Assembly (NCBI GenBank): GCA_008632985.1
Contig: QPGO01000263.1
Span: forward strand, 1 to 64,000
DNA from: Psammoneis japonica
Taxonomy: Eukaryota
Reading direction: 5' to 3'
DNA length: 64,000 nucleotides
Shown: in pieces, positions 1-57,443 of the stretch
How the letters are laid out: the number at the start of each line of letters is the position of its first letter
Numbering within the stretch: the stretch's first letter is position 1
Position numbers and translations under genes: made by a program
The notes under the pieces: model-generated
The model's input: only the letters and a program-made list of their open reading frames with translations
Databases searched by the model: none
Told to the model about the DNA's origin: nothing

Positions 1-1136
1 ATCAAGACAGGCTTGTGATGTGCACTTGATGTCCTTCTTGGGGTCTTGGTTGGCACACAATGATGGCATGTCATTTTTTGGGCATCACAATGTGCGTGCA
101 CGCCGATTGGAACAAAATGACGTGATGGAGCCTCGGGGACACTCCTGATGTTGGTGTTTGTCATGCAGTCTTGTCATTGTCCAAAGAAGACAAACCAGCA
201 AGTGTGCTGCAATCAGCTGGCTTTTTGACCCTTTTTGTCGAAATTTGCATGCCTCATGAGCCTCTTTTTGTGAGTCTGGTTGATGTGCGCAGGTGTCTGG
301 TCTACAATGGCCCTTTCTTCCTGCTCTGCAATGGTGTCATCTTCACTGTCTGTCATGTTATGCTGTCCATGTTATTTTGAGAGAATTTGGCAGTGTGCCT
401 TCCAGTCTGGGCTTTGCACTTGGTAAAATGGAGAAAGGGAGGAGGGAGGATGGTTTTGCCAGTCTCCTTGCAAATGCAACAAACTGCTGGTGACACTTGG
501 GGCCATGAAATTTGGCCGGGTGACTCACAAGTCTTTTGACATTGTTTGTTGATTTGGGAAATTGGTCTCTGAAATTTCAGTCTAGAGAGGAAATGGACAG
601 AACAGTGTGGGACCTGCTGAAGATTTGTGGCAAAGCATTTGGTGGGCATGCTGTTGCACGTCGACTGTGGAGTTAGTCAGCTGTGGGTGTGTGCTTTTTC
701 TGCATTTTTCATGAGCAGCGAAGCAGCAGACATTGCATTTAGATGGCCCATGGCACATCGCTGTTCTTTAGAGTGTTTGCTCTGCTGGCACTGGAGAGCA
801 GATCAAGAGCTGCAGCGCCAATCATCTGGTCATCGTGTGTGTGCATTGAACGCATTGCAGAGCCTGCAAATCTTCTCTCTCCTCCTCCTCTTTTTCCTCT
901 GCTTTTTTTTTCATAAACTTGGAGCCACCTGCATGACCAGACACATGCCAAATTTCTGATGTGCAGGGAGGAGCTGATTGAAAAATTGCAATGTTGCCCA
1001 TGTTGTGCTGCCGGTGCTCCTGGTGTTCCATTTTGTTGTTGTGTCCATGCCTCATTGCTGTCATCTTCACAAGACCTGTTTCATCAACTGTCTTTGCCAC
1101 ATGTGCCACATGTGACCGTGTGTTGTGCCACCCAGG

Positions 1137-1770
1137 TGCTTCCTCTGGCAAGCAATGGATGTCCATGGGGAAACACCATGTTGTTCTTTTTGGGCCATGT
1201 GGTGCAGTGCTGCTTCTGCACAGTGATGATTGCACTCACAACCTGATTCAATTTCAACATGGATCTTCACATCATGGTGGAATGCCGTGGCTCGCGACAA
1301 GAATGACAGCAAGAATTTGGCTGCTGACTGCCCAAAACCACTCATTTCAACAACAGTGCACCATGTGCTGGTTCTCCATCATCCCCTGAGATCGACAGTG
1401 CCATGACACAGGTCCTCACTCCACCATTGCCGTCAAGCCAAAGCACGCAAAACGAAAAAGACGATCTTCCATCAACAATGCAGACGCAAAAACAGGCCAA
1501 ACAATGTCATTTCTACACCATGCACAATTGCTTGTGGGTTGATTGATGAGTTGGAGGCCTGTCAGGGTGGTGGCAATGTGTTGCCATGTCAGCAGCGGTG
1601 GCATTTTGGTCATTGTGGTGTGTTTTGTGCCCATTTGTGTGAACTCTGTGACGGTGTGCATTCCGACCGCACAAACAAAAAACATGTGGAAGCAGTGCCA
1701 TTTTGTGTGGCCCAAAAAGAACAACATGGTGTTTCCCCGTGGACATTTGTCACTTGCTGGAGGGAGCATG
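1137..1770. repeat. Inverted repeat pair (about 85 bp arms at about 1137-1222 and 1683-1770)
   Basis: ggggaaacaccatgttgttctttttgggcca near 1167 is the reverse complement of tggcccaaaaagaacaacatggtgtttcccc near 1708. Confidence 0.8.
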
Positions 1771-2169
1771 GGAGTCGCCTCAGCAGGGAAACTCTTGCAT
1801 CATCTGGAGAAAGTCTCTCTTGACAAGAATCTCACCTGCGTTCTCTGTTTTGGGGCACGTCAGGTTGGTTGCAGTGTCTCCATCATTGCTTTTGATGCAA
1901 ACNACTGGCTCTCCCCAAAAGCTGCCATTAAAAAAGAAGGGTCCCCTGTCATGAGTTGTTGATCTCATCAAGACAAGTTTCTTCTGATTGAAATCCATGC
2001 AACCACTGTTGCTGATGGCATGAAGCATCACCATTCAAAGAAAGCAACCCCCAAAAAAATTGCCAAGACTGAACAAGCCAAGCTTGACTGTCCAGTGCTT
2101 TGAAAGAACATTTTTGAGAAAGCAGAGTGGACTCGTCCACCATCTGTTGCTCTGCAAGAGCTCTCTGAG

Positions 2170-4385
2170 TTGAAGAAACAGATGACATGTCTTGAAAAGA
2201 AGGTGACTGCAAAAGAGAGCTGCGCTCAAGAAGAGATTCCTTTGGATTTTGTCAACAACTTGGAGTTTGAGGTCAACAAGCTCAATGAGGACAGCAAGAT
2301 TCAAGCACATGCCAAGCCATTGGCAGCAAACACACAGGTGGATTGTGTCATTTGCAAGCAGGCTGCATGCCAAGAGATTGATGGCACCATCGCAAATGGC
2401 TTGGATTTTTGTGTTGCAGCCAGGAAGGACATGTTGCTCATCAAGGATTTCACGTTTGGGCACAGAAAGGGTTTGTCAGCTCTTCAGAACATGATGTTGG
2501 CAGCTTCAGTGGAATCTGTCTTGGTGGATGCAGTTCAAGATGGCATTGGGAAGGACGACACGAGTTGCACCACAAAATCCAAAACACCACTTTTCCAAAA
2601 GGAAGACCCAATGATGAGGGCAATGATTGCTGTTGAAATTGGGTGCAACACTCTGCCTGGCGGGGTCCCAAGTGTTGGCACCAAAAGCATTGAAGAGTTC
2701 TTCAGTGCCAAGCCCAATGCGTCTGTGGATGATCTTGCATTGCACTGCGAGAGCAAGTCATCCATGAACCCAACTGTGCTTTGTGCATTTGGTTTGGCCA
2801 TGATCTGTGAGCCTGGCAACACATGTGATGAGCCGGTGTTGCAAAAGACACATTCATTCATGGCCCTCCAACAGCTCTCCTGGATCATCTTAGAAAGTTT
2901 GCTGCTGGGACAGACATTGTGGTAGATGATTCTGTTGGCAGAAGTGACTGCTGCAGTTGTTGTGGCATTGGTCATGTGTTTGCCACCAGCAAGGACTTCA
3001 AATTGTGTTTGGAATGCAAGTCAACACTTTGCAAGCTTTGCGTCATGGATGCAAAGGAGGCAGACTCTGCAAGAGTCAATGTGCCACACTGCATGTCATG
3101 TCTGAGTGCTGCTGTGGGTGTTGACACCAAGGCGGAAGAGTCTCAGATGTCAACATCTAGGATGCATGAGGAACTTCTGTCTGCAAATGTGCGCGACATT
3201 GCCGACCTGTCCATCAATGAAGTGGAAGAGCTGCGTGATGCAACAGTCAATGGAAAACACAATGAGATTGATGGTTTGGATGACACTCAGTTTCCGGAGT
3301 GGCCTTCAAGTGAGACAAACAATTCATTGCATCTTCTAAAGAAAGTGCCGCTAGATTTTAGTGATGGAGCACAGTTCCTTCAAGCTGAGGAACTGGAGGA
3401 CAAAGAGATCTGCAGTGTGGTTTGCATTCTCTCTGAGCTTTTGAAGTTCTCTGGCTTGCTGGACAAGAGCAAAAGCATGCATGAGCAAGCTGTTCCTGAC
3501 ATTGTTGCTCATTTTGCTCGAGAATCAAGATGAGACAGTGGTGAGTGGCTGATGAAGCACACAAATTGGCACACTGCTGATCCTTGGTCTCAATCACTCG
3601 TGACAGCAACGGGTGCCATTTGTTGTGATTGCAACCTTGATGTGGCCTGCATTCTCATTGATGGAATGGCGGGGGCATCTGTGAAGGATGAGACACATGA
3701 AACAAGAGTGCACTTTTCTGCTGAAAGGCTCATTTGCTGCAGCTGCACATGCAAAGCTGGTTCACAGGGATTGGAGAAGGTCATCTGTGTTCATGCTCTC
3801 TCCATCAAACAGAAATTGTGTCATTTGCTTGTTGATGGTCCAGCTGAACATGCGGTGTGTGAGTTGTCCACTTGGTGGCAGGCGCCCAGTCCAGCTCTTA
3901 ATGCACAAGTGGCAACTGATCTTCAAACTGACATTCTTTACCTGCTCAGCGTGGTTGATGCCTCCAAATGGACTGGCTTGGCAGATGATGTTGCTGTTGG
4001 CACCATCTTGTCAAAACACTCCGTCAGAACTGAGAATGCAAAAGCACCGCCCATGCTGCTTCCAGTCAACACCGCATTCCAGCCACTCCACACCTGCCTT
4101 TTTCAAAATCTGGCACAGAAATTCATCAATGAGATCAAGGGTGCAATGGATGCTGTTCATTCAGTTGATCAATCTGCTTCTGTTTCTGCAGACCCATGCA
4201 ATGCTTCCACTGAAGCTCCAGACTGCGAGCACATCATTGCTGTGAAACTAACTTTGTGCAACATTCTTGAGCGGCACGAGAAAGCAGGCAACTTCCTCAA
4301 CTCCAGTTCAAAAAGAAAACAGCTGACTGCATTGGCAACCACCTGTCTGCCTTTTGAGCATCAACTGGGGCCCCCAAACTTGTGA
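2170..4385 (+). pseudogene. Decayed transposon-associated ORF with an H3TH-like nuclease motif and a SWIM-type zinc finger
   Basis: Consecutive broken ORFs: AVEIGCNTLPGGVPSVG (resembles GCD..PGG..GVG), a CxxC cluster, and CCSCTCKAGSQGLEKVICVHAL (CxC...CxH SWIM pattern). Confidence 0.45.
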
Positions 4386-7300
4386 CCAGGGACAGTGTCC
4401 AAATGTGCAACAAGCTGTCAATGGCATTGTTGGATGTGTGCAAAAGAGGATGGGTGGACCAGAATCCTGTGATTTGCAAGGTCAACTCACATGCCGGTAA
4501 AAAGACTGCCACAGAAAATGATGCAGATTCAATTGATGTGCAACACGAATCCAAACCGCTGGCCAAGAAGCAATGGAAAAGTGTGGCTGGTTGGGAACTG
4601 ATGAGCTGTTTCCTGGTGCAATGTCTGACTCTGATTGTTTCAATGAAACAGGAGTGTTGGAAGTGCAGCGTCAGTTTCAAGAGTGCGATGGCAGGGTGCC
4701 TTTCACCCTCATCCTTGACTGTGGCCATTGATCGACTTGGGCGGCGCGGCACAATGTCCAGTTTGTGCTGCAAGCAACATTTGCACAGAGTGACAAGAAG
4801 TTCTCCACCGTTGATGTGCTGAGAGCTGCAAGTGTTGCTGCTGATCCTTCTGGAAATGAACAGGCTGTGCGTGTTGGAAAAATGTCATCATTCGTGAAGC
4901 GAGGAATGGAGACGCACAAGAATGTTGTGCGATTGTGCAACGCCTGGCTTGCGCGGAGCTTCCAAGCCAACTTCATGTTCAAACTGGTGTTGCAGCTGTG
5001 GTTGACAACACTGCACTCAGAATTGGAGCTTGGTGGGCTGCCACCTGAAGCTGTGCTGGGCATGCCACACAGTTCAGGGCTGTGGCTGCTGGGTGATCTT
5101 GCATTGTTGTGTGAGTTGGCGCTGGCTGGGCACACCAGCTTTGGTGGAGTTGGGCTGGTTGCTGACTTTGTCACAGGAGGAAGACTTGGATTGCATGGAC
5201 TCAATTTGGGAACAAGATGAGTCACCAGAGGCAGAGCAGATGTGCCAGTCCAATTTGGTGCAGCCAAAGGTGCTGGGCTTTGCATGGGTTGGATGTGGGA
5301 AAGCCTGTGGGTGGGAGTCAGCTGTGTGACTGTTGAATGTCGGTGACAGGAGAAGGTCTTTGCTGCAGAGAGCTGCTTTGACTGCAGCTTGCGCAGTGCA
5401 AGGCTGCTGCTCAGAGCCATGCTGAGCATGTCACTCAGTGCAGGACCACATCTGCTTGGCAGTCTGGCCACAGTGTGAGACAGCAGTTTGGCATCACCAG
5501 CGCTGGTGGCAGAGTTGGATTGGGCATCAGATCTGGCACAGGAGGAGGAGTTCTTGGCCATGGACTCAGAGTGGGGTCAAGGAGGAGAGCAGCAGGTGGG
5601 CACACAGAAGGTGTTGCAGCTTTTTGGCTTGGTTTGGTTTTGTCCATTTGGGGATTCCCCAAAATGGGCAGGGTGAGGGGAGTCACTTTGCCCTTTTGGG
5701 GAAAACCTGGGAAATGAGGGCAATTTGGCAGGAAGGAATGCCTGAAAGGGCTCAGGGGAGGGGAACAAAAACAAGTGGAGTGCAGCAATGTGCAATGACC
5801 ACAGTTGGGCGGGTGTGCTTTCATCCCCACAACCATCCATCGTGGGCAACAACCACAACTGATTTGTCAACACATTGGCACAAAGTGGCCCCTTGTGGCA
5901 GAGTGAGAAAAGAACAAACTTTGTCATTCAATCATCAATGTCAATGTTGCTCATGCACAGCTCTGTTTTTGCCTTGGCCTTTGCTCTGGAGCCCTTGTTG
6001 TTTGCATTTGTGACCACATGACTCAAGAAGGAAAAAATGATCCACTGCATTCTGCACATGAGATGGGTCAAAGGGAAGAACAAGCACAACAATTCAATCT
6101 GCCACATTTTTGTTGGCCATGTGCAGCTCTGCTTTTGCCTCATCCTTTGCTCTGCATGCCCCATGGCTTGCATTTGTGGCTGCACAACCCTGCCGGCAGA
6201 GTGATTTGAGCAACCCACTTGACTCCAAACACAAGATGCATCAATTGGAAGAATGAGGCAGACTGTTCAATCTGCCATGCCATCATCATTGGCCATGCAT
6301 GGTTCCACTTTTGTCCTGGCCTTTGCCGTGTGCCTCATTGCTTGCATTTGTGGCTGCATGACAAAAGAACAACCGCTGATGTCTGACGATCAATTGCACT
6401 GGCATTTTGCACATGAGCAACCACATTTTATCTTGTGTTTGATGCTGCAGATCCCATTCAATTGACATTGTTGAATGCATTGAACGATGTCATGATTGAT
6501 CAACAAAAGCCATCACAAATGGGGTGCGAGCACGCCATGGCGTGTTGCCCATTTTTGTTGCGGTTGGTCAACTGTCTGGCTGCATGCGTCCCAGCACACA
6601 AAAGGCATGGAAATGCATGAGAGGGGAAGCACAGGGAACTGCCAATGCACAATTTTTTATCTGTGAGTTGAGCACATGTGTGATGAAGCATGGTTTGTGG
6701 CGGTTCCCCTGGAGTTCACACTTCCTGCAGAAAAACAGGGTGAAAGGTGGCAGTCCCGGGGATTTGGGGGAATCCTGCGGCAAAACCAAACCAAGGTTTT
6801 TGGGCATTGTTTGATTTGGTTGACAGTGTGCATGGATGAAGGTGCATCACATGGTGTGGGGAACTTGGGGTTGCAAAGGGAGAAGGGCAGCATCAAAGGC
6901 ACAAGAGATGGAACACCGCTTGCTCCTGCTGAAGTCACAGTGCATGGAACCAAACTTGGCACTGCAGAGAGAGCAGACAAAGCAATGTCAAAGGGAAGGA
7001 AAAATGAAAGTGCTTTCAAAATTGCCCTGAAGGCGATGCAGATCACCAGGTGGATGGTCAGTCTTGTTGGACTTTGTGTGGCCACAGGCAGCCAGTGGCT
7101 GAGGAGTTGGGCTGGGCATTGGATCAGGCAGAGGAGAGGAAAACTTGGCTGCAGACTCAGACCAGATGCAGGAGGAGATGAAGGAGGCAAAGGGGTGGGC
7201 ATGTGTCAATCCAATTTGAAGCTGGCAAAGGCTTTGGGTGGTCTGGTGCAGGAACGGGTTTGGGCAGCTCTGCTGGCTCTGGAGTTAGCCACAACATCAG

Positions 7301-8082
7301 ATCAGGGGCAGGATGAGTGCCTGAGGTTTTCACTTCAGAGCTGCACCTGGGCACTGGGCTGCCACCTCTTGGGTTGCACCAGTTGTGTCATTTGGCACAT
7401 GGGGTTGTGCACAACTTGGTGCAGCCTTGTTGCATCACCCAAATTTTCCACACGAGTTGTTTTCTGAAGTGCTGTCACATCATTTGGCACCTCCACTGCC
7501 TTGCTGTCTGCTGATGACACATTGTCCTCCTCAAAAGAATGGAGGAGTTTTCATCATGTGGGCCAGAACTTCAGCAAACCCTTGTGGTCAAGGGGCGTGC
7601 AAAAGAGGAGGACACTGTGCAGCCACACACTCATGTGCAGACCTTCCAGTCAATGAGTTTGACATTTTTTCAGCAACTGCCTCGTTGACATGATCTTGAC
7701 ACAAAGGGCATCACAACGGGAAGAAAAAATGAGCACTGTTGGCTGCTGCTGGGTGAATGACCAAAAACAGTTGTGCGCAATTTTCCACGGGGCTTGAGTC
7801 CTGCCACTTCAGCAGTTTTTCATCTTTTGCCAAAGCAACATGGCTCAAACCCCACAGAAATCATGTGGGGTGGACAACACTGCCCACAAAATTGGGGATT
7901 GTGATGCTTGTTGTGCGCGAGTCATGGCAGTCATTGGCACTGGCACTCACCACCAGCTTGCTGAGATCCACTGGCTGAGTGTGTCAACAAGGCTTGCCAG
8001 CCAACATTTTTGCAAAATTTGCTTGTTTTTGTGCAGGTGCACTGTCCAAGCAATGGCGCTGGGAGTGTGCAGGAGAGCTGAG

Positions 8083-8430
8083 GGCACCCAAGTTTTGCCC
8101 CAAAGGTGGGTGCCCAAGTTTCACCCCAAAGGGGGTGCCCAAGTTCACTCTAAAGCTGGGCTGTGCCCAAGTTTTGTTCCAAAGCTGGGCACCCAAGTTT
8201 TGCCCCAAAGTTGGGCACCCGCACAGGTTTTTCCCAAAAGTTGGGTTCCCCAGTCTCCCTCCCCCCTTCCCAAAGTTGTGCACCCAAGTTTTGCCCAAAG
8301 GTTGGCTCCCAAATTTGCCTCAAAGCTGGGTGCCCAAGTTTTGCCCTGAAGCTGGGCACCTCCAAGTTTTGCCCCAAAGTTGGGTGCCCAACTTTTGTCA
8401 CCAAGTTGGGCTTCTTGGTGCACCCAAACA
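8083..8430. repeat. Degenerate minisatellite of roughly 25 bp units (gggcaccc/gggtgccc + aagttttgccccaaag)
   Basis: More than 10 visible copies of cccaagtttt(g)cccaaag(c/t)tggg. Confidence 0.85.
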
Positions 8431-8519
8431 CAAGCCAGCTTGCCAGCAATGGGCAGCAGCTCTCAAGTGCTCATGGGGCCAGCATGGGCTGACTTTGACT
8501 TTGGAGATGTTGTGCAGAT

Positions 8520-9200
8520 CAGCAACAAGGGGCAACAAGCAAGTTCAAAAATGAACAAGAGCAGCTGCTCAAGGTTGCCAGCAGCACTGATGCTGACACA
8601 AGATGCTCTTTCTCAAGAGAAATTGTGGGTGCAAACCAAGCAAAGATCAAACAGTCATTTTGTGAGGAGAAACAATGGATTTTTTGAATCCAGCCATCTG
8701 GGTGACACAGACAGTGATGTCATCAAGAACGACCACAACTGCGGCACAAAGACTGCCCAAAACCTGTCTTGTCGCTGCTCAAGGATCGAGCAGTTGACAA
8801 AGCAGCAATGTGGGTGATGTCAGCTCACCCTTTGGACTGCCCTGTGGTGTGCATCAGTTGTGCCACCAGCACCAGTCAGTGGGGCCACAAGTGCTGGGGG
8901 TGCAAACAAACTGTGATGAGGCTGCACTCATCATGCATGGAGGCTCACCTTCAAACATGAAGCGGCGCTTGTCCAAACTTGCTCTTTTGCGTTGTTGCTG
9001 CCTGCAAAGAAGGAGCTGAAGCTGCTCCAAAGCTGCTGGAAGAGGAGCTCAAGTGGTGCCATCTGGGCTTCACAGCGCTTGTCTCAACTTGTTTTTGGAG
9101 CAGATGCTGCACTCAGGTGCCATGTTTAAAACAGCGGCCATGTGCTGTGACTCTGCTCCAGAGGTTTTGTTGGCAAGGGTTCTGTGATTTGCAACTTGCG
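8520..9200 (+). mobile_element. Possible LTR-retrotransposon RNase H/integrase remnant
   Basis: IKNDHN (cf. IYTDHKN) and LKWCH...LLQRFCWQG (cf. WYH...RFYW of the integrase Zn-binding region). Heavily degraded. Confidence 0.35.
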
Positions 9201-9394
9201 ACAAGAGAAAAAGAGGTGTGTGTCTGTTGCTCTCTTCTTTGTTTTGTCCAACACCATGCCACAGTCCATCAAAAAATTTCATCCACGAAGTTGAACATCT
9301 TTCATGCGCCGTTCATTGTTTGAGTCACCCGGCTGTGTCTTTCAGTGCAGCAGAAGTGCACAAGGCCTGCAGTCTGCCACACCGCACAGCACAG

Positions 9395-9630
9395 CACCGC
9401 ATGAAAAAACAGCAGCCGACCATGGACAAAACAATGACACCATGATGTGATTGACTGACAGAAACCGACAAGAGCACATTGTCAGTGACACACAGCAAAT
9501 TTTATGAGTGGGGGCCCAGCAGGGGCCGCATGAAAAAACAGCAGCCGACCATGGACAAACCAATGACACCATGTGATTGACTGACAGAAACTGACCAGAG
9601 CACATTATCAGTGATAGTAAATTTTATGCC
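9395..9630 (+). repeat. Tandem duplication of about 130 bp at the TE/gene boundary
   Basis: catgaaaaaacagcagccgaccatggacaaa...gcacatt(g/a)tcagtga...aattttatg occurs twice. Confidence 0.9.
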
Positions 9631-9942
9631 TGTCTTAATCATTGTAGCATTTTATTTTTAAATCAATTGATTGCATACAAAACCCCCAACGACTGAATTT
9701 CGCGATAGGAAACTTGATCTTAGAAACGACAAATTAACGCTTTAATAAATAATTGCGTCGAAAAGCGTTACACGAGAAAAAAACACGCAAGAGGCACGCG
9801 GAGTGAGCGAGCCCCCTTTTCCCGCTCAAATCGCCTCGATCTCTCCCGCAGTAGAAAATCATCTCACTTTTTTTCTTTGCTGGGTCGACCAAGCTCCTTT
9901 CGTACATTTTTTTGTAAAGCAGTAAAGAAAAGTTTGTTCAAC

Positions 9943-11599
9943 ATGAGTGGTAAGTCTCTATCTCTCGTACGGAACTTGTTCTTTTCCTCTGCGTTGTTTG
10001 CTCATTCGCTCGTTCCTCCTTACAGAGAAATCGGACTTGCACAAAGCTCTCAGCATCTTCAAGATGTTCTACTCCACCGTTCTCCTTGTGTTCTCGCTGG
10101 TGATCGTTATGGGCTTGATCTTCACAAGGCAGACGGCGTGGTCCGAGCAATACCATCCTGCTCTTGCCTTTATTATCCTTTGGGTGATGTTGATTTGGCT
10201 CTCGTTCGTCGAGGGCGGACAGGCTTCGTTGGTTGGACTTCACCCGATTGACCGTGAGCTCTACAAGGACACCCACCCGATCGCTTACAAGGGCAATGCC
10301 ATGACCCAACAGGGAGATAACCTCGATCGCTACCTTATGGGCCGTCAGTTCATGGTCATCTTTATCGTTTTCCTCATCAACAAGTGTGGAGCCCCCATCG
10401 AAGGTGCTGAACTCTGGGGATTGCCCAAGTGGATTGTCGACATCTTCCTTGTCACCGGATTCGCCATGATCCTCTTTACGGCACAGGTCGGGCAGTTGCA
10501 GTCGCAGGTCAACGCATCGCTCTGTATGCTTGACTACTTCAACGATTATGCAAACCTCTTCACGCTCTACACTGCCAGGGCGATTGAATTCACTGGTCTC
10601 ATGCACTTCTCCTACTTTATCCAGATTTGTGTTGGATACCTTGCTGGCAAGCCCATCGAATCCAAGGAGCCTCCGCGCAGCACCGGTCAATCTCTTTTCT
10701 TCTGGTTCCGTGTCCTTGTCTCGTTTGTCGTCCTCGGCTTTGCCTTGGCAGTCACCCTATCTGCTCTTTTCCAAGGACAAACCACCATGTGGGACGGTGT
10801 TCCCGAGGCAGTTGCCGTGATTCTTTTCTTCCTCCTCATGTCTGTCGTTGGTATGCTCGAAGGTATGCAGATTGCCTTCTTTGCCGTCGCCAAGCTTACC
10901 AAGGACGAGCGTGGAAGAGCCAAGTGTGCCAAGATGACTTGCGACCTCCTCTACAAGGGCAGGGGACACAACCTTCCCAATTTCATGATTGGCCGTCAGC
11001 TCAGCGTCGTGTCTTGCTTCTTCATTATCTCTCGTGTCACCACTGTCTCGATGGACGAGGGCAAGGGCAACCTGTGGGGTGTTAGCGATGGACTCCAAGA
11101 ACTCTTTGAAACTGGTTTCCTTGGTGCCACCATTACTACTATTCTCGGATCCATCTCGTGGCAGCTTGTCGCGTCTGCCTTTCCCATTGCCTTTTTGTCA
11201 AACCCCATCACCTACCTGTTCCTCCGCATCTGTCTATTTTTGGAGGCCACCGGTATTTGCTCTGGAGCATGGTTCCTTGCCAAGATTGACAAGAAGGTCC
11301 GAGGCTTTAAGCGTGACGAAGTCTACATTGGCACTGCTGAAGAACGTGCTGCGCGCAAGGGCGGCAAAGAAGACGAAGAAGAAAGTGTCGAGGCTGGCCA
11401 TTTGTACCCGGCTGTTCCACTCTTGCCCAAGGACGTAGAATACAATGACCTCTCTCTCGATCAAATCGAAGAACTCGAAAGCGAGATTGATGAACACATG
11501 AAGGAGCTGCAGGAGCGCAAAGCCGGTTTGACACTGCAGAAACAAAAGCTGATGAATCCAGACGGTTCAAGCGGCACTGATGACATTGAAGAACCCTAA
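9943..11599 (+). CDS. SIT: Silicon transporter (diatom SIT family); predicted intron 9950-10025
   Basis: About 10 hydrophobic segments, four GXQ motifs (EGGQ, GRQ, EGMQ, GRQ), CMLD motif and a C-terminal coiled coil. ATG AGT G|gtaagt...tacag|AG AAA gives MSEKSDLH. Confidence 0.97.
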
Positions 11600-11829
11600 G
11601 AGGGGATTCCCACTTATATCTAGGCCCCACAAACACATATGGCGCCCTTTCGATGTTGGTAGTATTTGCCTTTGTTCATAACACAATGGCACAGCATTTG
11701 CGTAATCCACCCGAATAAAATAATGTTTATTACATGAGGGACACTGTACTCTTTAAAATAATTGGACACTGCCATCATGCGCCGTAGCCAGCGCTGTACT
11801 TTTTAAAAAATGGTCAATCAGCAGTCCAC

Positions 11830-12800: not shown

Positions 12801-12879
12801 GAAGGGTCAAACCTCTGATGAAGCAACAAAACAGGCCATTCAGCATGAAAAGTTCCACAGCAAACCCAAAAAAACCAAA

Positions 12880-37235: not shown

Positions 37236-37303
37236 AAATATGCTAAACGTCCAGAAGTGAGATTGAAGATACTGCAGAATGATCCAATGGGTCTTTATCA
37301 CCC

Positions 37304-39263: not shown

Positions 39264-39669
39264 CGTTGCTACAGCCGCTTCCATCCCAATCTTGCGTTTT
39301 ATCTTCAAACAAAGTAGAGAGTTAAAGAGCCTCTACTCTACTCTAGCTACTACTAGAGACCTTATCTATTGAGAGAGGAGAGGTAGGGCCCTCTCTCTAG
39401 AGACTAGCCTACCGTACTGAGGAGAACTGAGCATGGACGTTTCCCGCATTTTTTCGATCCAATAATTGGTGTCGCACACTCGAGTCGTGATTTCTCACAG
39501 AAAAGTAGTATCGTTGAAACAGACCACAACGGATTGATGAGCAATTGATAGCATATTTAATCTTTAATCATGGCGAATACTTATTTTTGTCGGACCTTCT
39601 TGGTTCGCGCCAAACGACTCACTCCGTGCTTCCACTTTTTCAAAGTCCCATGAATATTGGATGGATTGA

Positions 39670-40015: not shown

Positions 40016-40037
40016 TTTAAAATACAATAATGATCAT

Positions 40038-45970: not shown

Positions 45971-48900
45971 CTAGTAGGAGTCAATAGAGTTGCTCCTTCC
46001 ACCCTTGCCCTTGCTTGGCGGCGGGGACGGAGGAGTTGGGTCAGTACTACTACCACTGCTGCTGCTGCTTCTTGAACTAGACGATCCCTTGCTCCTACTG
46101 CTACTTTCAAAGGAGCCTCCCTCGCTCTTGCTGCTAGAACCCGAAGAGCCACTGCTGCTACTACTGCTTGATGGCTTCGGGGGTGATGGAGTGGAAGGAA
46201 TAATTGGATCAGTGCTGCTGCTGCCTGAACTAGGCGATCCCTTGCTCCTGCCGCTGTTCAAGCCAGAGGAACCACCCTTGCTCTTGCTGGTAGAACCTGA
46301 CAAGCCGCTGTTGCTACTACTGCTTGATGGCCTCGGGGGTGATGGCGGGGAAGGAGGAGTTGGACCAGTGCTGCCGCTGCTTGAACTAGACGATCCCTTG
46401 CTCCTGCGGCTGCTCGAGCCAGAGGAACCGCCCTTGCTCTTGCTGGTAGAACCCGACAAGCTGCTGCTGCTGCTGCTACGGCTTGGTGGTATTGGGGGTG
46501 AGGGCAGGGAAGGAGGAATTGGATCAGATCCGCTGCTGCTTGAACTCGACGATCCCTTACTCTTACTGCTGCTCCCAGAGGAGCCTCCCTTGCTCTTGCT
46601 GCTGCTTGAGCCAGAGGAACCACCCTTGCTCTTGCTGCTAGAACCTGAAGAGCTGCCGCCGCTGCTGCTGCTACTGCTTGGTGGGATTGGGAATGATGGC
46701 GGGAAAGGAAGAGCTGGATCAGTGCTGCTACTGCTGCTGCTTGAACTAGATGACCCCTTGCTCTTACTGCTGCTTCCAGAGGATCCAGAGGAGCCTCCCT
46801 TGCTCTTGCTACTGCGCGAGCCAGAGAAACCACCCTTGCTTCCAGAGGAGCCCCCCTTGCTCTTGCTGCTGCTTGAGCCGGAGGAGCCGCCCTTGCTCTT
46901 GCTGCTAGAACCTGAAGAGGTGTTGCTGCTGCTACTACTGCTTGGTGGGATGGGGAATGATGGCGGGAAAGGAAGAGCTGGATCAGTGCTGCTGCTGCTG
47001 CTGCTTGAACTGGATGACCCCTTACTCTTACTGCTGTTCCCAGAGGAGCCTCCCTTGCTCTTGCTGCTGCGCGAGCCAGAGGAACCACCCTTGCTTCCAG
47101 AGGAGCCCCCCTTGCTCTTACTGCTAGAGGAACCACCCTTGCTCTTGCTGCTAGAACCTGAAGAGCTGCTGCTGCTTTTACTGCTTGGTTGGATGGGGAA
47201 TGATGGCGGGAAAGGAATACCTGGATCAGTACCGCTGCTACTGCTGCTGCTGCTACTTGAACTAGATGACCCCTTGCTCTTACTGCTGCTCCCAGAGGAG
47301 CTAGAGGAGCCTCCCTTGCTCTTGCTGCTGCGCGAACCAGAGGAACCACCCTTGCTTTTGCTGCTGGAACCTGAAGAGCTGCTACTGCTACTGCGTGGTG
47401 GGACGGGGGATGATGGCGGGAAAGGAAGAGCTGGGTCAGGGCTGCTACTGCTTGAACTAGACGATCCTTTGCTCTTGCTGCTGCTTCCAGACGAGCCTCC
47501 CTTGCTCTTGCTGCTTCTCGAGCTAGAGGAACCACCTTTGCTGCTACTACTCCTTGATCTCAACGAGCTGCTGCTGCTGCTGCTTGAGCTACTCGAACTG
47601 GGCGCTGCCGGCATCGGGGGTGGCGGCGGGCCATCACTGCTGCTGCTGCTGCTGCTGCTTGAGCTACTCGAACTGGGCAGTGCCGGTGTTGGAGGAGTTG
47701 GCACAGGCGGGTACACAGTACCCGGAGGACTGTCGCTGCTGCTGCTGCTGCTGCTGCTTGGAGGTGACAGTGCCGGAGGAGAGCCGTCGCTGCTACTCCT
47801 GCTGCTACTGCTACTTGAGCTACTTGCACTGGGCACTGCCGGCATCGGGGGTGGGGGTGGCGGTTTGCCATCGCTGCTCCTGCTTGAGCTACTCGAGCTG
47901 GGTAGTACCGGTGTAGGAGGAGGTGGTGCAGGCGGATACACAGTACCTGTGGACGATGACGAACTGGACGAAGACGAGCTGCTTCCTGAACCGCCTTTGC
48001 CACCAGCTTTACCCTTGCTTCTTGAGCCTCCTTTGCTTCCAGCACCGCCTTTGCTACCAGATGCTGATGAGTATCCCTTGCTGCCAGATCCTCCTTTGCT
48101 AGCAGAACTACTAGAACCCCCTTTTCCACTCTGTCCACCCTTATTCTTTCCTTTGCCAGAGCTTGAACGACCTTTACCCTTCCCGTGCTCAAAATTGTCA
48201 CTAGAAGACCTACTATGGCCTTTTCCTTTCCCACCTTTACCTTTTCCCTTGCTGCTGCTGGACGATGTACCCTTGCCCTTGGGAGGTGGATGCGTTGGAG
48301 TCGGTGGTGTTGGCATGGGTGGTGTTGGCGTTGGGGGTGGCAAAACGGTCGGGCATGGCGTGGGAGGCTTTGTTGGCGGCGGCACTGGCGGTAAAATCGG
48401 CTGAAACGGAATTGTTGGAGTTGGCGTTGGCGGTGTTGTTGGTTCTGGCGTTGGTGGCGGCAAAACTGGCTCGAACGGAGTCAACGTTGGCTGCGTTGTT
48501 GGTGGAGTTGTCGGTGCTGGCGTTGGCGGAGGCAAAACTGGCTCAAATGGAATCGGCGTTGGTTCTGGCGTTGGTGGAGGAGGAGTTGGTTCTGGCGTTG
48601 GGGGAGGAACAATTTTTTCTGGTGCTGACGGTGCGGGTGTCGGGGCAGGCGTTGGAGTAGGAGTAGGCTGTGCAGTTGGGCCAAACGTGACAACTTGTTC
48701 CGGCGCTGACGGTGCGGGTGTCGGAGGCGGTGTCGGGACAGGCGTCGGAGGAGGAGAAGGCTGCTTAGTAGGGTTCAACGTGACAACGGCGTCCGGTGCT
48801 GACGGTGCGGGTGTCGGAGGCGGCGTCGGGGCAGGCGTCGGAGGAGGATTGGGCTGCACAGTAGGGCTCAATGTGACAACTTGTTCCGGTGCTGACGGTG

Positions 48901-49636
48901 CGGGTGTCGGAGGCGGCGTCGGGGTAGGCGTCGGAGGAGGAGAAGGCTGCTTAGTAGGGCTCAACGTGACAACGGCGTCCGGTGCTGACGGTGCGGGTGT
49001 CGGGGGCGGTGTCGGGGCAGGCGTCGGAGGACGAGTAGGCTGCACAGTCGGGCCAAACGTGACAACGGAATCCGGTGCTGACGGTGCGGGTGTCGGAGGC
49101 GGTGTCGGGGTAGGCGTTGGAGGAGGAGTAGGCTGCGTAGTGGGGCTCAAAGTGATAACGGGAGCCGGTGCCGTTGGTTCTGGCGTTGGGGCAGGCGTCG
49201 GAGGAGGAGTAGGCTGCGTAGTGGGGCTCAACGTGACAACGAGAGCTGGAGCTGACGGTGCGGGTGTTGGCGGCGGTGTCGGTGCAGGTGTTGGCTCTGG
49301 GGTCGGTGGTGGAGTCGGTGACGGGGATGGCTCTAGTGTTGGCTCGGGCGTTGGTTCCAAGGTAGTCACTAGTTCGTTACTAGGTGCTGGAGTTGGAGCA
49401 GGGCTGGGAAACCTCCAAATGAGTTCCGACGATTTCGTAGGCGCACATGTAGCCTCGCCTTCCAGCTCTCGAATCGTTCCTCTTAGGTTCGTTTTGCTTG
49501 CCAAAGCTCTGTGGATTGACTTCAAGAACGAATTGATCCTTCCTTTGACTTCGACTCCTGTCGGAAGAAGATTTCCATTTGTAGCAACAGAGGAACCACA
49601 AACGAGGACGTACACAAGCGTGACTCCTACCTTCAT
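45971..49636 (-). CDS. Secreted Pro/Thr-rich and Ser/Lys/Gly-rich low-complexity protein (silaffin-like cell-wall candidate)
   Basis: Signal peptide [24 protein letters not shown] motifs; PTPAPT repeats; KGKGKGGK; many [10 protein letters not shown] and DPALPFPPS modules. Confidence 0.75.
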
Positions 49637-49644
49637 GTTGTATT

Positions 49645-49666
49645 TTCTCTCTCTCTCTCTCTCTCT
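49645..49666. repeat. (TC)n microsatellite just upstream of the start codon
   Basis: About ten tc units. Confidence 0.8.
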
Positions 49667-50269
49667 ATTGAAGGGAAGTTTGCGGCTGATGTCGGATCGT
49701 TTGGTCGTTTTGTGTTCGTGTTCGATGCAACTGAACAAGAGTTTGATGTGCGCAATGATCCGATTTTGTGAGTTCCTTGCCAAATTTGTGATTTCCAACG
49801 CATAAAGGCGTATTCGCGACTAATTGACGCCGCATGCTTTTATATATATTATATTCTTCTTAAACTTCGAATACACTATTTACTTTTTTTGCCTAAGTAT
49901 CTTTTTTTGATGTATTCATGACTATATATTAGAAATCAAGGGTCATTATGTGACACCTGGAAATAATTTTGGCGCTCCAACGCTTGATCTTGCCAACGCG
50001 TGAATGTTGTGTGTGCCGAGAGGAGGTGCGCGTCGCATCTTCGCAAGCGCACCACGCACCCGCCAGCGAAACTTTTCGACAAAAAAACACGCGCGGAGGC
50101 AAGAGATTGGAGGTATTCAGACCGACAAAATGGGCGAAACGACGACAGCTATTCACAAGCTGTTGAATGGCAGTCACTACGCTCAACAGTCCTATTTGCA
50201 TAGCACTCATTGCTACTCTCTCTTTTGATAGATCCGCGACCAGAATCATCCCAGAATCTCCACGTAAGA

Positions 50270-51165: not shown

Positions 51166-51559
51166 GTGAAATGAATCATCACTGGAAAGCTCTCTCTAGT
51201 CGAATCGTTGACCTGTGCGGTGATTATTCAGCGATCTTTTCTTGTACAGCAAGGAGGGACAGAGATGGTTATTGACAGAGGAACGACAACCTAGGGCCAT
51301 TCTCGAAGCATGGCAACCGCGGTCTGATGAGTAGTGTGAGTGAAAGCTGTGGCTCATAATAGTAGTCCCTATTCGCTGTTGTTGAATCAACTTGATTGTA
51401 CAACGCTCTCTATGCTCTAGAGAGTGCATTGTGTTTTCTTTCAATTTCCCCGCCTTTCACAACACAGTACCTCTCTCCTCTTGCTACACGATTCAATACG
51501 AAACCATTCTTCTTGGTGATTTAGTGCTCCTGGTTTTGAAACGTTGTTTCTCTCCCTCT

Positions 51560-54500
51560 CATCACCAGACTTTGCACAGAAACCACATTGTTGGCCATGC
51601 ACAGGGTGCCCTCAGAAACTTGCCCACGGAGTTTGGCTGCCTCATGCACCAAGCAGGCAGTTGAGTTTTGGCAGTGCAACAGATTGTGGTTGACTGCAAT
51701 TCAGAGAACATTTCTGACTGGGCTTGTTTGGCTAAGAAATGTTCAGTCATGTGAAAGCCACCTTCACTTCATGCAGCTGCATGATCCTGTTCATCCACAA
51801 AAATGAAAAACATTTCTCCAAGTTTCCAGCTTGCTTGGGACTTGGTGAATGCTGTGCAGCATGTGCCTTGCATGTTCAGTCTTTGCACATCCAATGTGCA
51901 ACATCAGTGGCCAGTCACCATTTGACATTTTTGTGTGAGGATCACTTGCAGTTGACACTCAGCAATCATGCCAATGCTTCTGCTCACTGGGGTGAGCATG
52001 AGCTCACATGGGCATGCACAACAATGTGCACTTCTGCAGCTCTGTCTTCACTTCCAAAGTTTGAGTTCACAGGACATGGCTGGCATCTGCCAGCAGCCAG
52101 CTTCACATGCTGCGTGCTCATTCCTCATGACATGGGTCATGAAACACCAGCATGGTCTGCCAACAATGAGGCAGATGAATCTGCCTTGGATTGTGTGTGT
52201 CTGTCAGTGCACCATCCTGTGAATGCAGTGCGCCATTGTCATTGATTTGTGAGACTCTGACAGGGCCGCACAACAGTCAGTCCTGCACCTGGATTTTTGT
52301 TTTTGTTTGACAAGCACCAGTTGTTCAATCCTGTGTTTGCAGCTTTGTCTCTTGGCCTTTCCTCATTTGTTGTTCAAGCAGACAAAGCTCTTGTTTTTTG
52401 TCTTGTGTGTTTCCACTTTCCTCACTTGTTGCATCTGTGACAGTGTCAGTCACAGCTCATGCAGCAAACACCATGACCATGGAGAGCAAACCATGGCCAC
52501 ACCATGTTCATTTCTGATCATTCAATGTGTGCGCTCTGCCACTGTGGCATTTGCAAGTGGATTTCTCCATTTGCTTGTGGGTTTCTTTTGGAAGCCACAG
52601 TTGTCTTCTTGAGTCACACATGACTAAATTTGGCCATTTGCTTGATTTCTTCTTGGTCAAAAACAGCGTTTCTCAGTCGTGGATGTCTGCACAGCCAGGT
52701 GGGCTGGATGACATTTGCCACAATGCCAGCATGATCAGCAGACAATTCAGTGATTTCAAACCATCCGCTTGCTGGATCAATCACAGTCACTGAACACAAA
52801 TGCAAGGGTGTCTCATTCTTGCACTTGATTGTGTGTGCTCTCCTGATCACATCTCTGCACAGAGGAGGGTCTGCCAAGGGGCAATCTCTGCCACCTTTTC
52901 TGGAAGTTTCTCACATCTTAGATTTCATCATTTTGTCTTTTGACATTTTTGCGTCTGGAGCATGCAGAGTGCACTGCAGCTCTCACATTGTGCCATCAGA
53001 AGTGCTGGGCAAGGGCAATTTCCACACATGTGGTCTCTCCTGGATGACACAATTAAAATTGTGTGTGGCACCACTTGGTCTGCTGCCTCTGCACTGACTC
53101 TGGGACACAAATTTTGTCCTGACAACACAAGCCAACTGTCTGCCAAACATTGGCTCTCTCCCATGGAATGACCATGTGGAGCAAAGGATGCACTCCACAT
53201 CCACAGGTGATTCAGCATCCATGGGATTACTCTCCACAATGATGGGGGGCTGTTTTGAGACATCTGGGGCAGTTGGCAACCAAACTTCAATGGCCTTTGA
53301 CACAACTTAACTCAGCAGGGCCATGTTCTTTGGATGTCAAATGCAAGTGCATGATGCACTCAGTGTTGAGTGCTTCACAAGTGAGACTTTTATGCTCAGC
53401 ACATGCAACAATTCAGTGACCAAGAAGAGCTGGCCTGAACTCTTTTATGGAGTCTTGACAATTGCAAGCAATTCTTGCTCTGTCACTGTGTGGCTCAACT
53501 GAGCACTGGCAAGCTTTCAGCTGTAAAATGCCACAAGTTTGTCATTTTGAAATGGCTTGTCAGCCAAAATCCCAATGCACCGGAAGCACATCTTCTGACA
53601 CCAATCACTTGACAATTCATGAGTGCTTCCTTTTCAATGGGAGATGGGAGTCTGCTCCAACTTGGAGGTCCTGGCTGCAAGTCTTGTGAGGGGTGCTGAA
53701 ACATGTGATCTTTGCAGCCATGTATCCTGGCAGCAGCTGACCATGCCGATGAATGACCAGAGTTCTTTCTTGATCTTCAGTTGGGCAATGTGCTGGTGCA
53801 TGGCCTTGACCTTTCTTCTCAAGGGTTGAGTGCCTTCATGAGTGACCTCATGTCCAAGATGCTTCAAGTGCATTTGGCAGAACAGCAGTGACTTTGAGGC
53901 ACTGGCCTCAAGTCAAGTGTCTTGAAGCCCCCCCTTGAGCATGGTGTCCACCTTCTTGAGGTGGTCACCCAACATGCTTTTTGTGATGACCAGCATGTCC
54001 TGAATGTGTGGGATGGGATGGGGCATCTGCTTCATCCTCTTCTTGTTAAAATTGCAAAAACCATTGATGAGCTGCACTCTGTTTGATCTGTTTTGGGGAC
54101 AAACAGCGGCAACGCCCATTTTGAGTGGTTTGTTTTCTTCAATGTGCTGATCTTGCACAGATGCTTGGTCTCATTGCTCAGCATCTGCTCACACAAATGT
54201 GATGCTTTGTGTGGTCTTGCACAGCATGGCTTGGTGTCATCCTTCAATTGGATGTGTGGCAAGGCTCACCCATGCTCACCTGACACTCTGTCAAATGATG
54301 GCTTGCACTTCTTTAGAGTCTGAAGCATTTTTTTACAATGTCAATGCTTTTTGCATTTTTGACTGCCAATGACAAATCTTCTGTGTGGTGCTTTGCTGTG
54401 AGAACAGTCAAGATTCTCCCACTGTCACTTTTCAATTGTGTCAATTCTTCAACATGAGAGACATGGTTGTTTGTCTTGAACACTCCTGGAACAGTTTTTC

Positions 54501-56800
54501 AACTTGATGAAGATTTTTGTTTTTCCTTTACAGCACATGGCTTTCAAGGTCACAAACAATGTTGGTGCAACAACCTGTTGGAGTTCTTTTTTCTGTTTTC
54601 CAGGCAGGCCTGCAGCACAAGTTCTGCCAGAGAGTTGAAAAGCAGTGTTGAGACATTCATTCAAACTGCCAAACTTTTTAGGACTGTCATGCCAGCCTCC
54701 TCTTCAGACTGTTTGGTGCCCTTCATCTTTGCCATCACAAATTTCCAAAAGCACCAGTGACTCACAAATGGACTCAGCTCTTTGTCTTGAATCTTGTGCT
54801 TTTTCATTTCTTGCTCTCAGGTGCTTTCTTCAATGCCTGGTTGATGGCAGTGCTCAGCTTTTCTTTGCTGTTTTCCTTTTTTGGTCATGGATGGATGACA
54901 GATGGATGCAAAGTCTTTGTGCACTTTGCTCAATGCTGCAAAGTTTAACACTTGTCAGTTGGCCAAATGACCACAATTTGTGCAACACAACAAGTGCATT
55001 TTGGAGCTGCCCTTGTGACTTGTGATGAGCAATTCTGGGCTGTTTTTGCCTTGGACTCTCTTCTTCAGCACCTTGGTTTTTGGAGCCACCTTTTGAAGTC
55101 TGTCCTCAACAGCTTGAACTTGCTCAATCCACTCACAATGAGTTCTGAAATTGTGTGAGAAAGTGATGGGTCAAAGCATTGAAGAACTGTGTGCTTTTGC
55201 CATGCACTTGGAACTTCACACTCAAACAAATTGACAAGAAATTCATAATTTGGCAATGGCATCAGGGCATTTCCTCTCCTTCTGCAATTGGAGGGATGTT
55301 GTTTGAGTGGCCACTGATCTCAACAGCCCTGTTTGCACAGTCCTGAGTCCTTGTCTTGGCTGGCTTGTGTGTGAGACACCTCAAGTGGTGCTTCTGAAGT
55401 GGCACCAGCACCCTCTTGGGTGCCATGCTTGCAGTGACCACTTTCTTTCACTCAGCACAATTTGTGTTTCTCTCAGTGGCATTTTTAAATGCCTTGTTGT
55501 TGCACATCATGAAAGCATCTCCCTCCAAGAGCCTGTGAGCCAATGAGTGCTTTTCTGGCCCAGTTGTGATGTTTTGTCAGAGAGTGACTTGCTCAGAGTT
55601 TTGGGTGCAGAGTGGCCACTCTTTGCACATTCCAGCCCTGAGGTGCAGCACTCACAACTCACACACTGGATTGTTTTGTTTTTGTCTCCTTCTTCTTCTG
55701 GGAATGCTGCCAAAGGGGAACAGGAGGCGCAGTCCTCTTCTTCATGATCACAGGGTTGGATGTCTGGGCTGAACAAGCACGCACTTTGTTGGACATGTTG
55801 ATTTGTAAAAAGTTTCTCAACACACTTGCTGGAGGGATGGTGCATTCCAGCTCCAGAAGAGGCAGGACCTCACACTGCTGACATTGAATTTTTTTTGTCA
55901 TGTGACACATTTCATGCATGCACACATCTGCATGATTTCGGTGTCATTTTTTGTGTCATTTTGCAGTGCAGTCATTCAGCTGTCCATTCAACAATTCTTT
56001 AGATAGTTTTTTGTGCAAAGGGATTCTCCAATGTCTGTGGAGTTGCATGGAGCAGGAAGATTTTCAAAAACTGTGAGCATTCACCAGAGGTGCAGTTGCA
56101 CTTTAAAATTGGTTGTTTGTTCAGATGTCAAAGACAATGCATTCATTGCCCAGTGTGCAAACTGCAGAGCTCACACGCAGAATTCTGTGTGCCCATGTCA
56201 CACAGAGTTCCACCTGGAGACAGAGTGCATCTAATGTTGCTGAGTTCAGGTTGGTGGGTGGATTGTGGTTGATTGCAATTCTGAGAACATTTCTGAGTCA
56301 GCTCATTTGGCCAAGAAATGCTGCTTGGTCTCGTGAGAAAGCCACAGCTGCTTGGTCTCATGAGAAAGCCACATTCACTTCACACAGCTGCACAACAGCT
56401 TTCATCCATGAACAAAGAGGCAGCATTGCTCCAAGTTCAGCTTGGGACTTGGTGAGTGCTGCACAGCACCACATGCCTTGCATGTTCAGTTTTCACACAT
56501 CCAACGTGTGACATGAATGGCCAGCTGCTGTGCGCATGACAACTTTGCATTGACAACTTGCAACTGCTGACACTTGGCAATCATGCCAATGCCCTTGCTC
56601 ACACACCAAATTGAGCACAAGCTTGCATGGACATGCATGCCATGCACTTCTGTGGCTCTCGCTTCACTTCTGAAGTTTGAGTTCACAGGGATGATGTGGC
56701 TGGCATCTGCCAAAAATCAGCATCACATGCTGCAGGACATCAAACACAAAGCTTGCCACTCTTCCCCTTGAAGCTCAATGGCCTGCAGTGCCTGGTGTGT
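51560..56800 (-). mobile_element. Degenerate Ty3/gypsy LTR retrotransposon with diverged LTR-like direct repeats (about 51630-52110 and 56200-56730)
   Basis: PCCARPH..KWALPLFVPK, PHPIPHIQDML, LKHLGH..ELWSFIGMVSCCQD (RT); VIDPASGWFEI..TWLCRHPR (integrase). The flanks share ttgtggttga.tgcaattc.gagaacatttctga and tttgagttcacagg. Confidence 0.85.
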
Positions 56801-57443
56801 TGAAGTCATCCCATCCATCATCCACCCTGGTGCTGCAGAGTTGCGTGAGTGAGGGAGACACCAAACAAGTGTGCCAGCATGCAGGCAATGACCATTGTGT
56901 GTGTTTAAAATAACACCCCCAGCATTCTGTGGCACCTTTGAGGGTGATCATTTCCAGCTTTTTTGGCACACGTTTTGTCAAAATGGCCCATGGCTAAGAT
57001 TTCAGATCTCAAAAGGGGCACAGTGCAGTGCCTCTCTGGAAGCACTCCATGTGCCCGCCATTGAGTGGCAAAACAGGCGGCAGGTCTTCTCAAGTTCTTG
57101 TTGCAGCATTGCTGCTGCACCAAAGAGTGGGGCACACGGCCAGAGTCAAGAGCTGGAGCCAAACCTTCCTTTTCCACCTGCTTTGGCAGAGTTGTGGAGC
57201 AAGGCCTGATCTGCCACGTCACAACCATTTCTGCTTTGAGCTTGCGCGGCGCGAGTGATGAAGCTGTTTCATTGGTTTTTGAGACTTGAGACCATCGCCA
57301 TCGTCAATCGCTCGGCCATTGGATAGCAGACCAATGATTTGCAGCAAACGCTGTAAGTAACGGAACTGGCATACCGGTGCCTTATACCTTATGGAGCTGT
57401 GTGGATGTGAAGGAGACGGAAGCACTTTTGGATTGGTAACAGC

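Follow-up and report, generated by a model that had tools for sequence, protein, structure and literature searches.

The diatom Psammoneis japonica carries, on contig QPGO01000263.1 of GenBank assembly GCA_008632985.1, a stretch of nuclear DNA in which genes of ordinary composition alternate with five sharply bounded blocks that have lost nearly all of their TpA and most of their CpG dinucleotides. The whole stretch analysed here, positions 1 to 64,000 of the forward strand, is called the window. The locus raises the question of how TpA can disappear from such blocks and stay in the DNA that adjoins them. Our answer is that a targeted, TpA-specific mutation process has acted on the blocks, and we give this a probability of about 0.8.

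The blocks were defined by segmentation of the window on TA-free gaps, which gave five blocks of 29.4 kb in total. The pooled blocks have observed/expected (o/e) ratios of 0.05 for TA, 0.21 for CG and 1.83 for CpA/TpG, as compared with 0.57 for TA and 0.94 for CG in the non-block DNA, and the single blocks range over 0.04–0.08 for TA, 0.11–0.46 for CG and 1.54–2.09 for TG and CA (Table 1). The blocks together contain 97 TA; in 200 mononucleotide shuffles, the count averaged 1927 and never fell below 1844. When the window was scanned in 1-kb steps, two classes of DNA without intermediates were obtained: in-block windows (n = 99) contained 0–9 TA with a median of 3, non-block windows (n = 117) contained 17–61 with a median of 37, and the ranges of blocks and genes did not overlap. 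The TA edges are sharp to about 100 bp, and the CG edges coincide with them mostly, but not everywhere. Introns, promoters and genes adjoining the blocks are TA-normal within the window, and in the promoter of the silicon transporter gene, beside block 1, TA is abundant already within 100 bp of the block edge. Almost no sequence is common to the five blocks. An earlier sequence-only reading of this DNA had described five bounded blocks poor in TpA and CpG amid normal genes; the segmentation, the per-block ratios and the shuffles confirmed this description, and its count of 26 TpA in 1–9400 was exact on recount, with 131 CpG in the same interval. The block bases of the assembly also agreed with sequencing reads, as contigs from the reads of a DNA run (X1) showed no differences over 4987–5654 and 6758–7969. 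Run X1 is possibly the assembly's own source, so that this match is not independent support, and a single sample provided all the runs that were found. The assembly has a gap of 83 N at 61369–61451 and a single N at 1903.

The TpA and CpG that are missing from the blocks can be accounted for by the TpG and CpA that are in excess. Per kb, TA decreased from 37.7 in the non-blocks to 3.3 in the blocks (−34.4, an 11-fold drop) and CG from 56.0 to 12.3 (−43.7), while TG+CA increased from 145.0 to 228.2. This surplus of 83.2 is about equal to the summed deficits of 78.1, and the G+C content is constant (0.489 in the blocks and 0.487 outside), which indicates that both pyrimidine-purine (YpR) palindromes were turned into TG/CA by transitions. 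The dinucleotides other than TA, CG, TG and CA, including AT, shifted by no more than about 10 per kb. Because AA/TT is not depleted (78.4 per kb in the blocks and 77.3 outside), the A:T>G:C part of the change is strictly specific to TpA, and is neither of the WA type (W, A or T) nor a general A>G bias.

The direction of change was read from a relic of a Harbinger/PIF-type DDE transposase in block 4. Its open reading frame (ORF) matched the Pfam family DDE_Tnp_4 with an E-value of 2e-4, under the curated cut-off, and an exhaustive HMMER search gave 701 homologues at E ≤ 1e-3, the best at 2.5e-28. By tblastn, residues 128–305 of the homologue mapped onto the relic, split over two frames, and with long homologues it was the sole relic located in the window. 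In comparison with 150 homologues, all three columns with a consensus tyrosine (Tyr) are TGT, TGC and CAT in the relic, that is, Cys or His. Four of the six columns with a consensus arginine (Arg) are CAG, TGC, TGT and CAC (Gln, Cys, Cys and His), and the two retained Arg are AGG. In addition, the relic is shifted in frame, lacks one half and carries many changes that are not of the YR kind. The same replacement was found among the homologues: 12 of the 150 best representatives are Tyr-poor (<1%), and where their three Tyr columns are filled (32 cells), 28 cells hold Cys or His. Most of the closest relatives of these 12 bear Tyr, and therefore the loss of Tyr arose repeatedly. One Tyr-free public homologue (P0160), when compared with a 77%-identical one (P0186), has Cys or His at all four Tyr of the aligned part. 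Three of the Tyr-free homologues derive from ENA assemblies, as found by profile search, and the named family members from the diatoms Mayamaea, Seminavis and Coscinodiscus have kept Tyr. A tandem duplication spans the right edge of block 1, and at three of its sites TA in the outer copy stands against TG or CA in the inner one.

Repeated segments inside the blocks show that the copies were changed separately. The two arms of a direct repeat in block 5, which resembles a pair of long terminal repeats (LTRs), differ at 85 bases, 34 of which belong to 17 doublets with TG in one arm and CA in the other. In 19 partly overlapping alignments of in-block repeats (2617 columns), CA<>TG doublets occurred 59 times and the next class six times, whereas 30 alignments of non-block repeats (10433 columns) had 17 of them beside other classes of 13, 12 and 11. 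Nine non-redundant in-block pairs contained 45 such doublets in about 1543 aligned bases. The occurrence of TG in one copy against CA in another means that the same ancestral palindromes were converted separately per copy, in place.

TG and CA are randomly interleaved in all five blocks (runs-test z from −1.04 to +0.98, autocorrelation near 0), so both strands were hit. The random order argues against single-strand deamination at the RNA stage, at the cDNA stage or coupled to transcription; by our estimate, strand-coordinated runs of about 10 events would have brought the lag-1 correlation to around 0.1, a value that n of about 2000 suffices to detect. The TA that survive in the blocks differ in context from those outside (chi-square 187, p 1.5e-35). 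Among 93 survivors, 23 are in TTAA and 28 in CTAA/TTAG, together 51 (55%) versus 117 of 1297 (9%) outside, and no ATAT or GTAC survived, versus 77 and 104 outside. The order of survival is TAA > TAG > TAY (Y, pyrimidine), and by our arithmetic the ratios of the classes fit the product of the survival on each strand.

The footprint of CpG loss overlaps that of TpA loss, yet the two are separable. The first 300 bp of block 4 (27442–27741) have o/e ratios of 0.07 for TA and 1.05 for CG, and the right end of block 2 (13341–13740) has 0.09 and 0.74, respectively. Several Tyr-free homologues of the relic retain all four Arg. A metagenome scan gave 31 loci with relatives of the transposase; none of the 31 carries a converted transposase, and four have TA-free stretches of 363–768 bp. 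Among these loci, the environmental contigs L031, L020 and L017 contain TA-free stretches of 700–1320 bp. TA o/e is 0.02 in L031:1-1570, where CG is 0.51 versus 0.56 in the remainder, and 0.08 in L020:3850-5100, where CG is 0.61 versus 0.77; TG/CA is raised in both. L017:268-967 has a TA o/e of 0.00 with CpG close to that of the contig remainder, and TG/CA is not raised. The TA-free part of L031 gave, as a separate observation, a weak match to a response-regulator receiver (E 2.9e-4). The homologues that lost Tyr and retained Arg, together with the TA-free DNA of ordinary CpG content, indicate that the TpA process is separable from CpG decay. The residual CpG of the blocks is mostly found in G+C-rich flanks (GCGC at 0.51 and CCGC/GCGG at 0.36 of the non-block density) and is almost absent from A/T flanks (ACGA/TCGT and TCGA at about 0.12). 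CpG decay is still polymorphic, as 19 of the 38 listed differences between block 1 and the X1 contigs are single CG<>TG/CA changes. One X1 contig over 2063–4686 had 29 differences in 2625 bases, as compared with 3 in 3869 for a genic contig (13612–17479); either block 1 is far more polymorphic, or the former contig comes from a close second copy.

We propose that old repeat insertions, now non-coding remnants, make up the five blocks, one block with the Harbinger-type relic and one with the LTR-like pair, and that after insertion they were altered in place by two context-specific transition processes, both ending at TpG/CpA. One would be a TpA-specific A:T>G:C change that strikes either strand independently, giving TpG when the A is changed and CpA when the T is changed. 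It would be confined to these domains and nearly complete, and survival would depend on the next base, with TAA surviving best, TAG less and TAY hardly ever. The other would be ordinary CpG decay to TpG/CpA, for which deamination of 5-methylcytosine (5mC) is the simplest cause. The sequence-only reading had already postulated a second, TpA-targeting A:T>G:C process, and the mass balance, the replacement of Tyr by Cys or His at three of three columns, the TG-versus-CA doublets and the edge duplication support it. Among possible enzymes, an ADAT2/TadA-type DNA adenine deaminase may be considered the likeliest, a candidate that we put forward with considerable doubt. The natural tRNA target of ADAT2/TadA, A34, follows the invariant U33.

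A hypermutation with this signature has been measured in the chlorarachniophyte Bigelowiella natans and was described in a preprint of April 2026. In its main text, Mettrop et al. (bioRxiv 10.64898/2026.01.13.699255) report mutation-accumulation lines in which two silent integrated viral regions, which are DNA of nucleocytoplasmic large DNA viruses (NCLDV) and virophages, received 231 of the 302 nuclear mutations; 230 of the 231 were A>G or T>C, without exception at TpA. In the inserts, the rate was about 6e-7 per site per generation, ~1000-fold above that of the genome, in some lines only. The same main text (bioRxiv 10.64898/2026.01.13.699255) reports TpA depletion with a gain of CpA+TpG as the long-term signature and an enrichment of DDE endonuclease and reverse transcriptase domains in TpA-depleted coding sequences, and its authors proposed an ADAT2-like DNA adenine deaminase; the words 'diatom', 'CpG', 'trinucleotide' and 'flanking' do not occur in it. 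As far as it is described there, the B. natans process is like that of the diatom blocks in the TpA-only change by A>G/T>C to TpG/CpA, in the delimited regions and in affecting a DDE element. The blocks are near-saturated (TA o/e 0.04–0.08), whereas TpA still makes up 3.3% of the dinucleotides in the NCLDV insert, and they show a fossil footprint alone, whereas the rates in the rhizarian were measured live. To the B. natans picture they add the strong CpG loss, which is co-located yet separable, and the hierarchy TAY > TAG > TAA. From these comparisons, we infer that the TpA process of the blocks is of the same kind, enzyme-driven and directed at silent foreign DNA, and the blocks would then be the saturated fossil form of the B. 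natans-type signature in a second, distant lineage. The sequence-only reading knew of no description in diatoms, and our literature searches, in which no report of TpA-depleted repeats from diatoms came up, agree; the description exists for B. natans. A lone match to a word starting with 'TpA', in PMC4504042, was 'Tpase-like'.

Other known systems share a part of this footprint. Fungal repeat-induced point mutation (RIP), known from Neurospora and others, changes C>T mainly at CpA, creates TpA and is triggered by duplication. The process in the blocks resembles RIP as a context-specific transition hypermutation of inserted repeats, in place and on both strands. Unlike in RIP, TpA was destroyed (o/e 0.05) and CpA/TpG reached 1.83, and a 2-kb duplicate and a tandem array in the window were spared. 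The term 'reverse RIP' used in the sequence-only reading is thus partly supported; its repeat-induced sense is not supported, because the duplicate, 87.6% identical, and the coding tandem array keep normal TA. As in CpG decay driven by 5mC, the blocks lost CpG and gained TG/CA, and Arg codons went from CGN to TGN/CAN at four of six relic columns. However, TpA was removed too, even where CpG is normal, and deamination of 5mC cannot remove TpA. APOBEC3 and ADAR act before integration, on single-stranded cDNA or double-stranded RNA, and leave strand-biased, clustered changes; editing of the ADAR type or at the cDNA stage accepts U or A on the 5' side. The blocks have a dinucleotide-biased transition footprint in common with them and would share a deaminase-type editing against invading nucleic acids, but their changes are post-integration, strand-symmetric and unclustered, with AA unchanged. 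RIP is among the subjects of PMC7296669, and methylation of transposable elements (TEs) and DNMT5 in diatoms are among those of PMC9998398.

Several explanations dispense with a targeted process on the inserted DNA. If TpA were hypermutable genome-wide, the unconstrained blocks could stand at a neutral equilibrium while selection preserves TA in genes and flanks. The blocks are indeed non-coding and old, their LTR-like arms are just 69% identical and no ORF families survive in them, but 3.3 TA versus 228 TG+CA per kb would require, by our arithmetic, that TA is lost at roughly 70-fold the per-site rate of the opposite change. Such an equilibrium would also erase TA under weak selection, as in introns and promoters and at synonymous or junction sites; yet each of the 117 non-block windows holds 17–61 TA, the silicon transporter promoter has abundant TA less than 100 bp from block 1, and normal TA at four-fold and intron sites beside TA-free blocks is already observed in the window. 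We regard this explanation as very unlikely. A shade less probable still is an inherited composition, in which TA was already lacking from the repeats when their spread began, for instance because they were non-coding elements constrained against TA. Repeat families do exist, as many X1 contigs are 90–99% like parts of the blocks. However, the five blocks are almost unrelated in sequence and nevertheless all TA-free, the relic stems from a Tyr-bearing family, the TG<>CA doublets represent separate conversion, and the two copies of the edge duplication differ in their TA state. Hardly any credence is given to an artefact of assembly or base calling, by which modified bases (5mC, modified A or T) were miscalled as TG/CA. 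TA and CG are both palindromes that could bear symmetric modifications, and the runs are from one sample and possibly the assembly's own; on the other hand, the X1 k-mer contigs agree without a difference over the two intervals given above, and CG versus TG/CA polymorphism is seen in the same run. The relic, moreover, is also frame-shifted, half missing and changed at many non-YR positions, Tyr>Cys/His occurs in 12 of 150 homologues of other public data sets, and the B. natans process was measured by resequencing.

We have equally little confidence in editing before integration, by ADAR-like A>I conversion of element RNA or by deamination of cDNA, with the product then copied into the genome. 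ADAR-type enzymes favour U before the edited A (stated in the main text of bioRxiv 10.64898/2026.01.13.699255), which would suit TpA. Against this, AA is undepleted, and TG and CA outcomes are equally frequent and in random order along one strand. The elements affected include a DNA transposon relic, and the TA-free zone ends inside a local duplication. The LTR-like arms carry 17 discordant TG/CA sites, although the arms of an LTR pair are identical at integration by the mechanism of LTR synthesis. An explanation that keeps the targeted TpA process and exchanges its chemistry is unlikely. By TET/JBP-type thymine oxidation, 5-hydroxymethyl- or 5-formyl-uracil at TpA would mispair with G and lead to T>C; alternatively, T:G mismatches from 5mC deamination would provoke error-prone patch repair by DNA polymerase eta (Pol eta). 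TpA is palindromic like CpG, both strands were hit equally and the TpA and CpG footprints are co-located, all of which would suit these chemistries, and both J-type thymine modification and the 5-hydroxymethyluracil of dinoflagellates favour TpA. The present evidence bears on thymine oxidation neither way. Pol eta has a WA motif, with mutations at TA and AA and a mixed A>G/T/C outcome, while in the blocks AA/TT is not depleted and TG+CA alone accounts for the deficit; this candidate of the sequence-only reading is accordingly a poor fit. A dependence on 5mC deamination is also countered by the existence of TA-free DNA with ordinary CpG.

Some observations weigh against a targeted TpA process on silenced foreign DNA. 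The 45 doublets of the non-redundant pairs lie, by our arithmetic, between the numbers expected from CG ancestors only (about 34) and from TA+CG ancestors (about 60), and TG<>CA doublets alone cannot separate TA from CG ancestors. The mass balance presumes that the repeats had a gene-like ancestral composition. The TA-free part of L031 adjoins, and does not cover, a transposase ORF that bears Tyr and is apparently unconverted. The 38 variants of block 1 include just two TA<>TG/CA transitions and one TG<>CA doublet; this number does not exceed what ordinary transitions at so many TG/CA sites would produce, and with the few TA left it says nothing on current TpA activity. Pfam scans covered 65 block ORFs of at least 120 aa, of which one matched a family (DDE_Tnp_4), and 150 of the 165 ORFs of 70–119 aa, none of which matched a TE family at a convincing E-value. 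A foreign origin of the putatively silenced DNA is evident for a small part of the 29 kb, and most of it is without a recognisable TE or viral protein.

The origin of the blocks from TEs is established for the Harbinger relic, and the LTR-like pair and the repeated segments suggest a repeat or TE origin elsewhere. The sequence-only reading had called the hypermutation TE-restricted; this stands for the relic, the LTR-like pair and the related run contigs, and not for most of the 29 kb, which has no recognisable family. Run X1 gave 962 contigs over 20 kb, many of which resemble parts of the blocks at 90–99%. Their summed depth peaks at 5337–6670 and 12007–13340, which is not a copy number and was not used as one. 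A match to zf-Tnp_2 in the short block ORFs (E 0.019) was rejected as being at chance level, the Pfam scan of the block 1 ORFs found no family, and the six block ORFs of at least 230 aa are, by our arithmetic, about what the density of TGA gives by chance. A second run, X2, is listed as 'DNA?' but behaves like RNA, with a GT..AG joint at 9948>10025 and cover of genic bins only; it has no cover in blocks 1–3, and this is no evidence about silencing.

TA-free DNA has only TGA stops, and long spurious ORFs are the consequence. The changes of Tyr to Cys/His and of Arg to Cys/His/Gln/Trp would hide transposon relics from profile searches. If the targeted process is what we think, a simple scan for TA o/e <0.1 with TG/CA near 1.8 could locate old invasions that escape protein searches. 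Any enzyme that is proposed has to account for the next-base preference and for the separability from CpG loss. It is tempting to go further and to suppose that diatoms share with B. natans a TpA-directed DNA-editing defence, ancient in the Stramenopiles–Alveolata–Rhizaria (SAR) group or wider, which works beside CpG methylation and in which TAY > TAG > TAA is the enzyme's own specificity. The two together would push both YpR palindromes of invading DNA to TpG/CpA without return and leave it devoid of Tyr codons and of TAA and TAG stops, and the enzyme could be named from a genomic comparison of organisms that carry the system with those that lack it; we consider the chance of this reading to be slightly short of even. 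Should the targeted process alone hold, TpA hypermutation would be no curiosity of one chlorarachniophyte and would shape the repeats of diatoms, which are a major group of phytoplankton and genetically tractable, and of unnamed organisms of metagenomes. With a second, distant lineage, the enzyme can be sought among genes whose presence or absence follows the footprint across genomes.

Table 1. Features of the window (positions in the window; o/e, observed/expected)
Feature	Position	Strand	Description
Block 1	1-9606	.	Cut by window start; degenerate repeat DNA; 27 TA (o/e 0.04), 135 CG (o/e 0.23), TG o/e 1.77, CA o/e 1.88
Block 2	11933-13740	.	9 TA (o/e 0.08); milder CpG loss, 50 CG (o/e 0.46)
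Block 3	17826-20783	.	9 TA (o/e 0.05); 30 CG (o/e 0.16); short tandem repeats inside at 17832-18158
Block 4	27442-36782	.	25 TA (o/e 0.04); 113 CG (o/e 0.20); fills the gap between tandem carbonic anhydrase/CBM6 gene copies
Block 5	51522-57324	.	27 TA (o/e 0.07); 36 CG (o/e 0.11), most extreme CpG loss
LTR-like direct repeat, left arm	51682-52113	+	In block 5; 69.4% identical to right arm
LTR-like direct repeat, right arm	56261-56733	+	In block 5; same pairwise alignment
Harbinger/PIF-type DDE transposase relic	33860-34385 (ORF 33858-34385)	+	In block 4; C-terminal half, two reading frames
Tandem duplication, ~110 bp	9397-9635	+	Spans right edge of block 1; copies 88% identical
Silicon transporter gene	9944-11711 (ORF 9947-11599)		Family match E 8e-209
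Duplicated gene, carbonic anhydrase + CBM6/CBM35 domains	24643-27275 and 36857-39608		Copies separated exactly by block 4
Tandem-repeat array	45971-49798		G+C 0.58-0.59; periods 93, 156, 264; both strands open (ORFs 1275 aa and 804 aa long)
Glycosyltransferase	58068-59468		Best named homologues in diatoms: Asterionellopsis-like, Attheya, Nitzschia, Fistulifera, Cylindrotheca, Amphora

The gene duplicates that flank block 4 are 87.6% identical over 2 kb (25113–27113 and 37268–39289), and their homology ends 75–170 bp outside the block. The 2-kb duplicate and the tandem array at 46–49.3 kb have TA o/e ratios of 0.55–0.84. The array, which gave no Pfam family, shows a strong strand asymmetry, with TG o/e of 1.65–1.69 versus CA of 0.50–0.63, and is probably a gene for a repetitive secreted or cell-wall protein.

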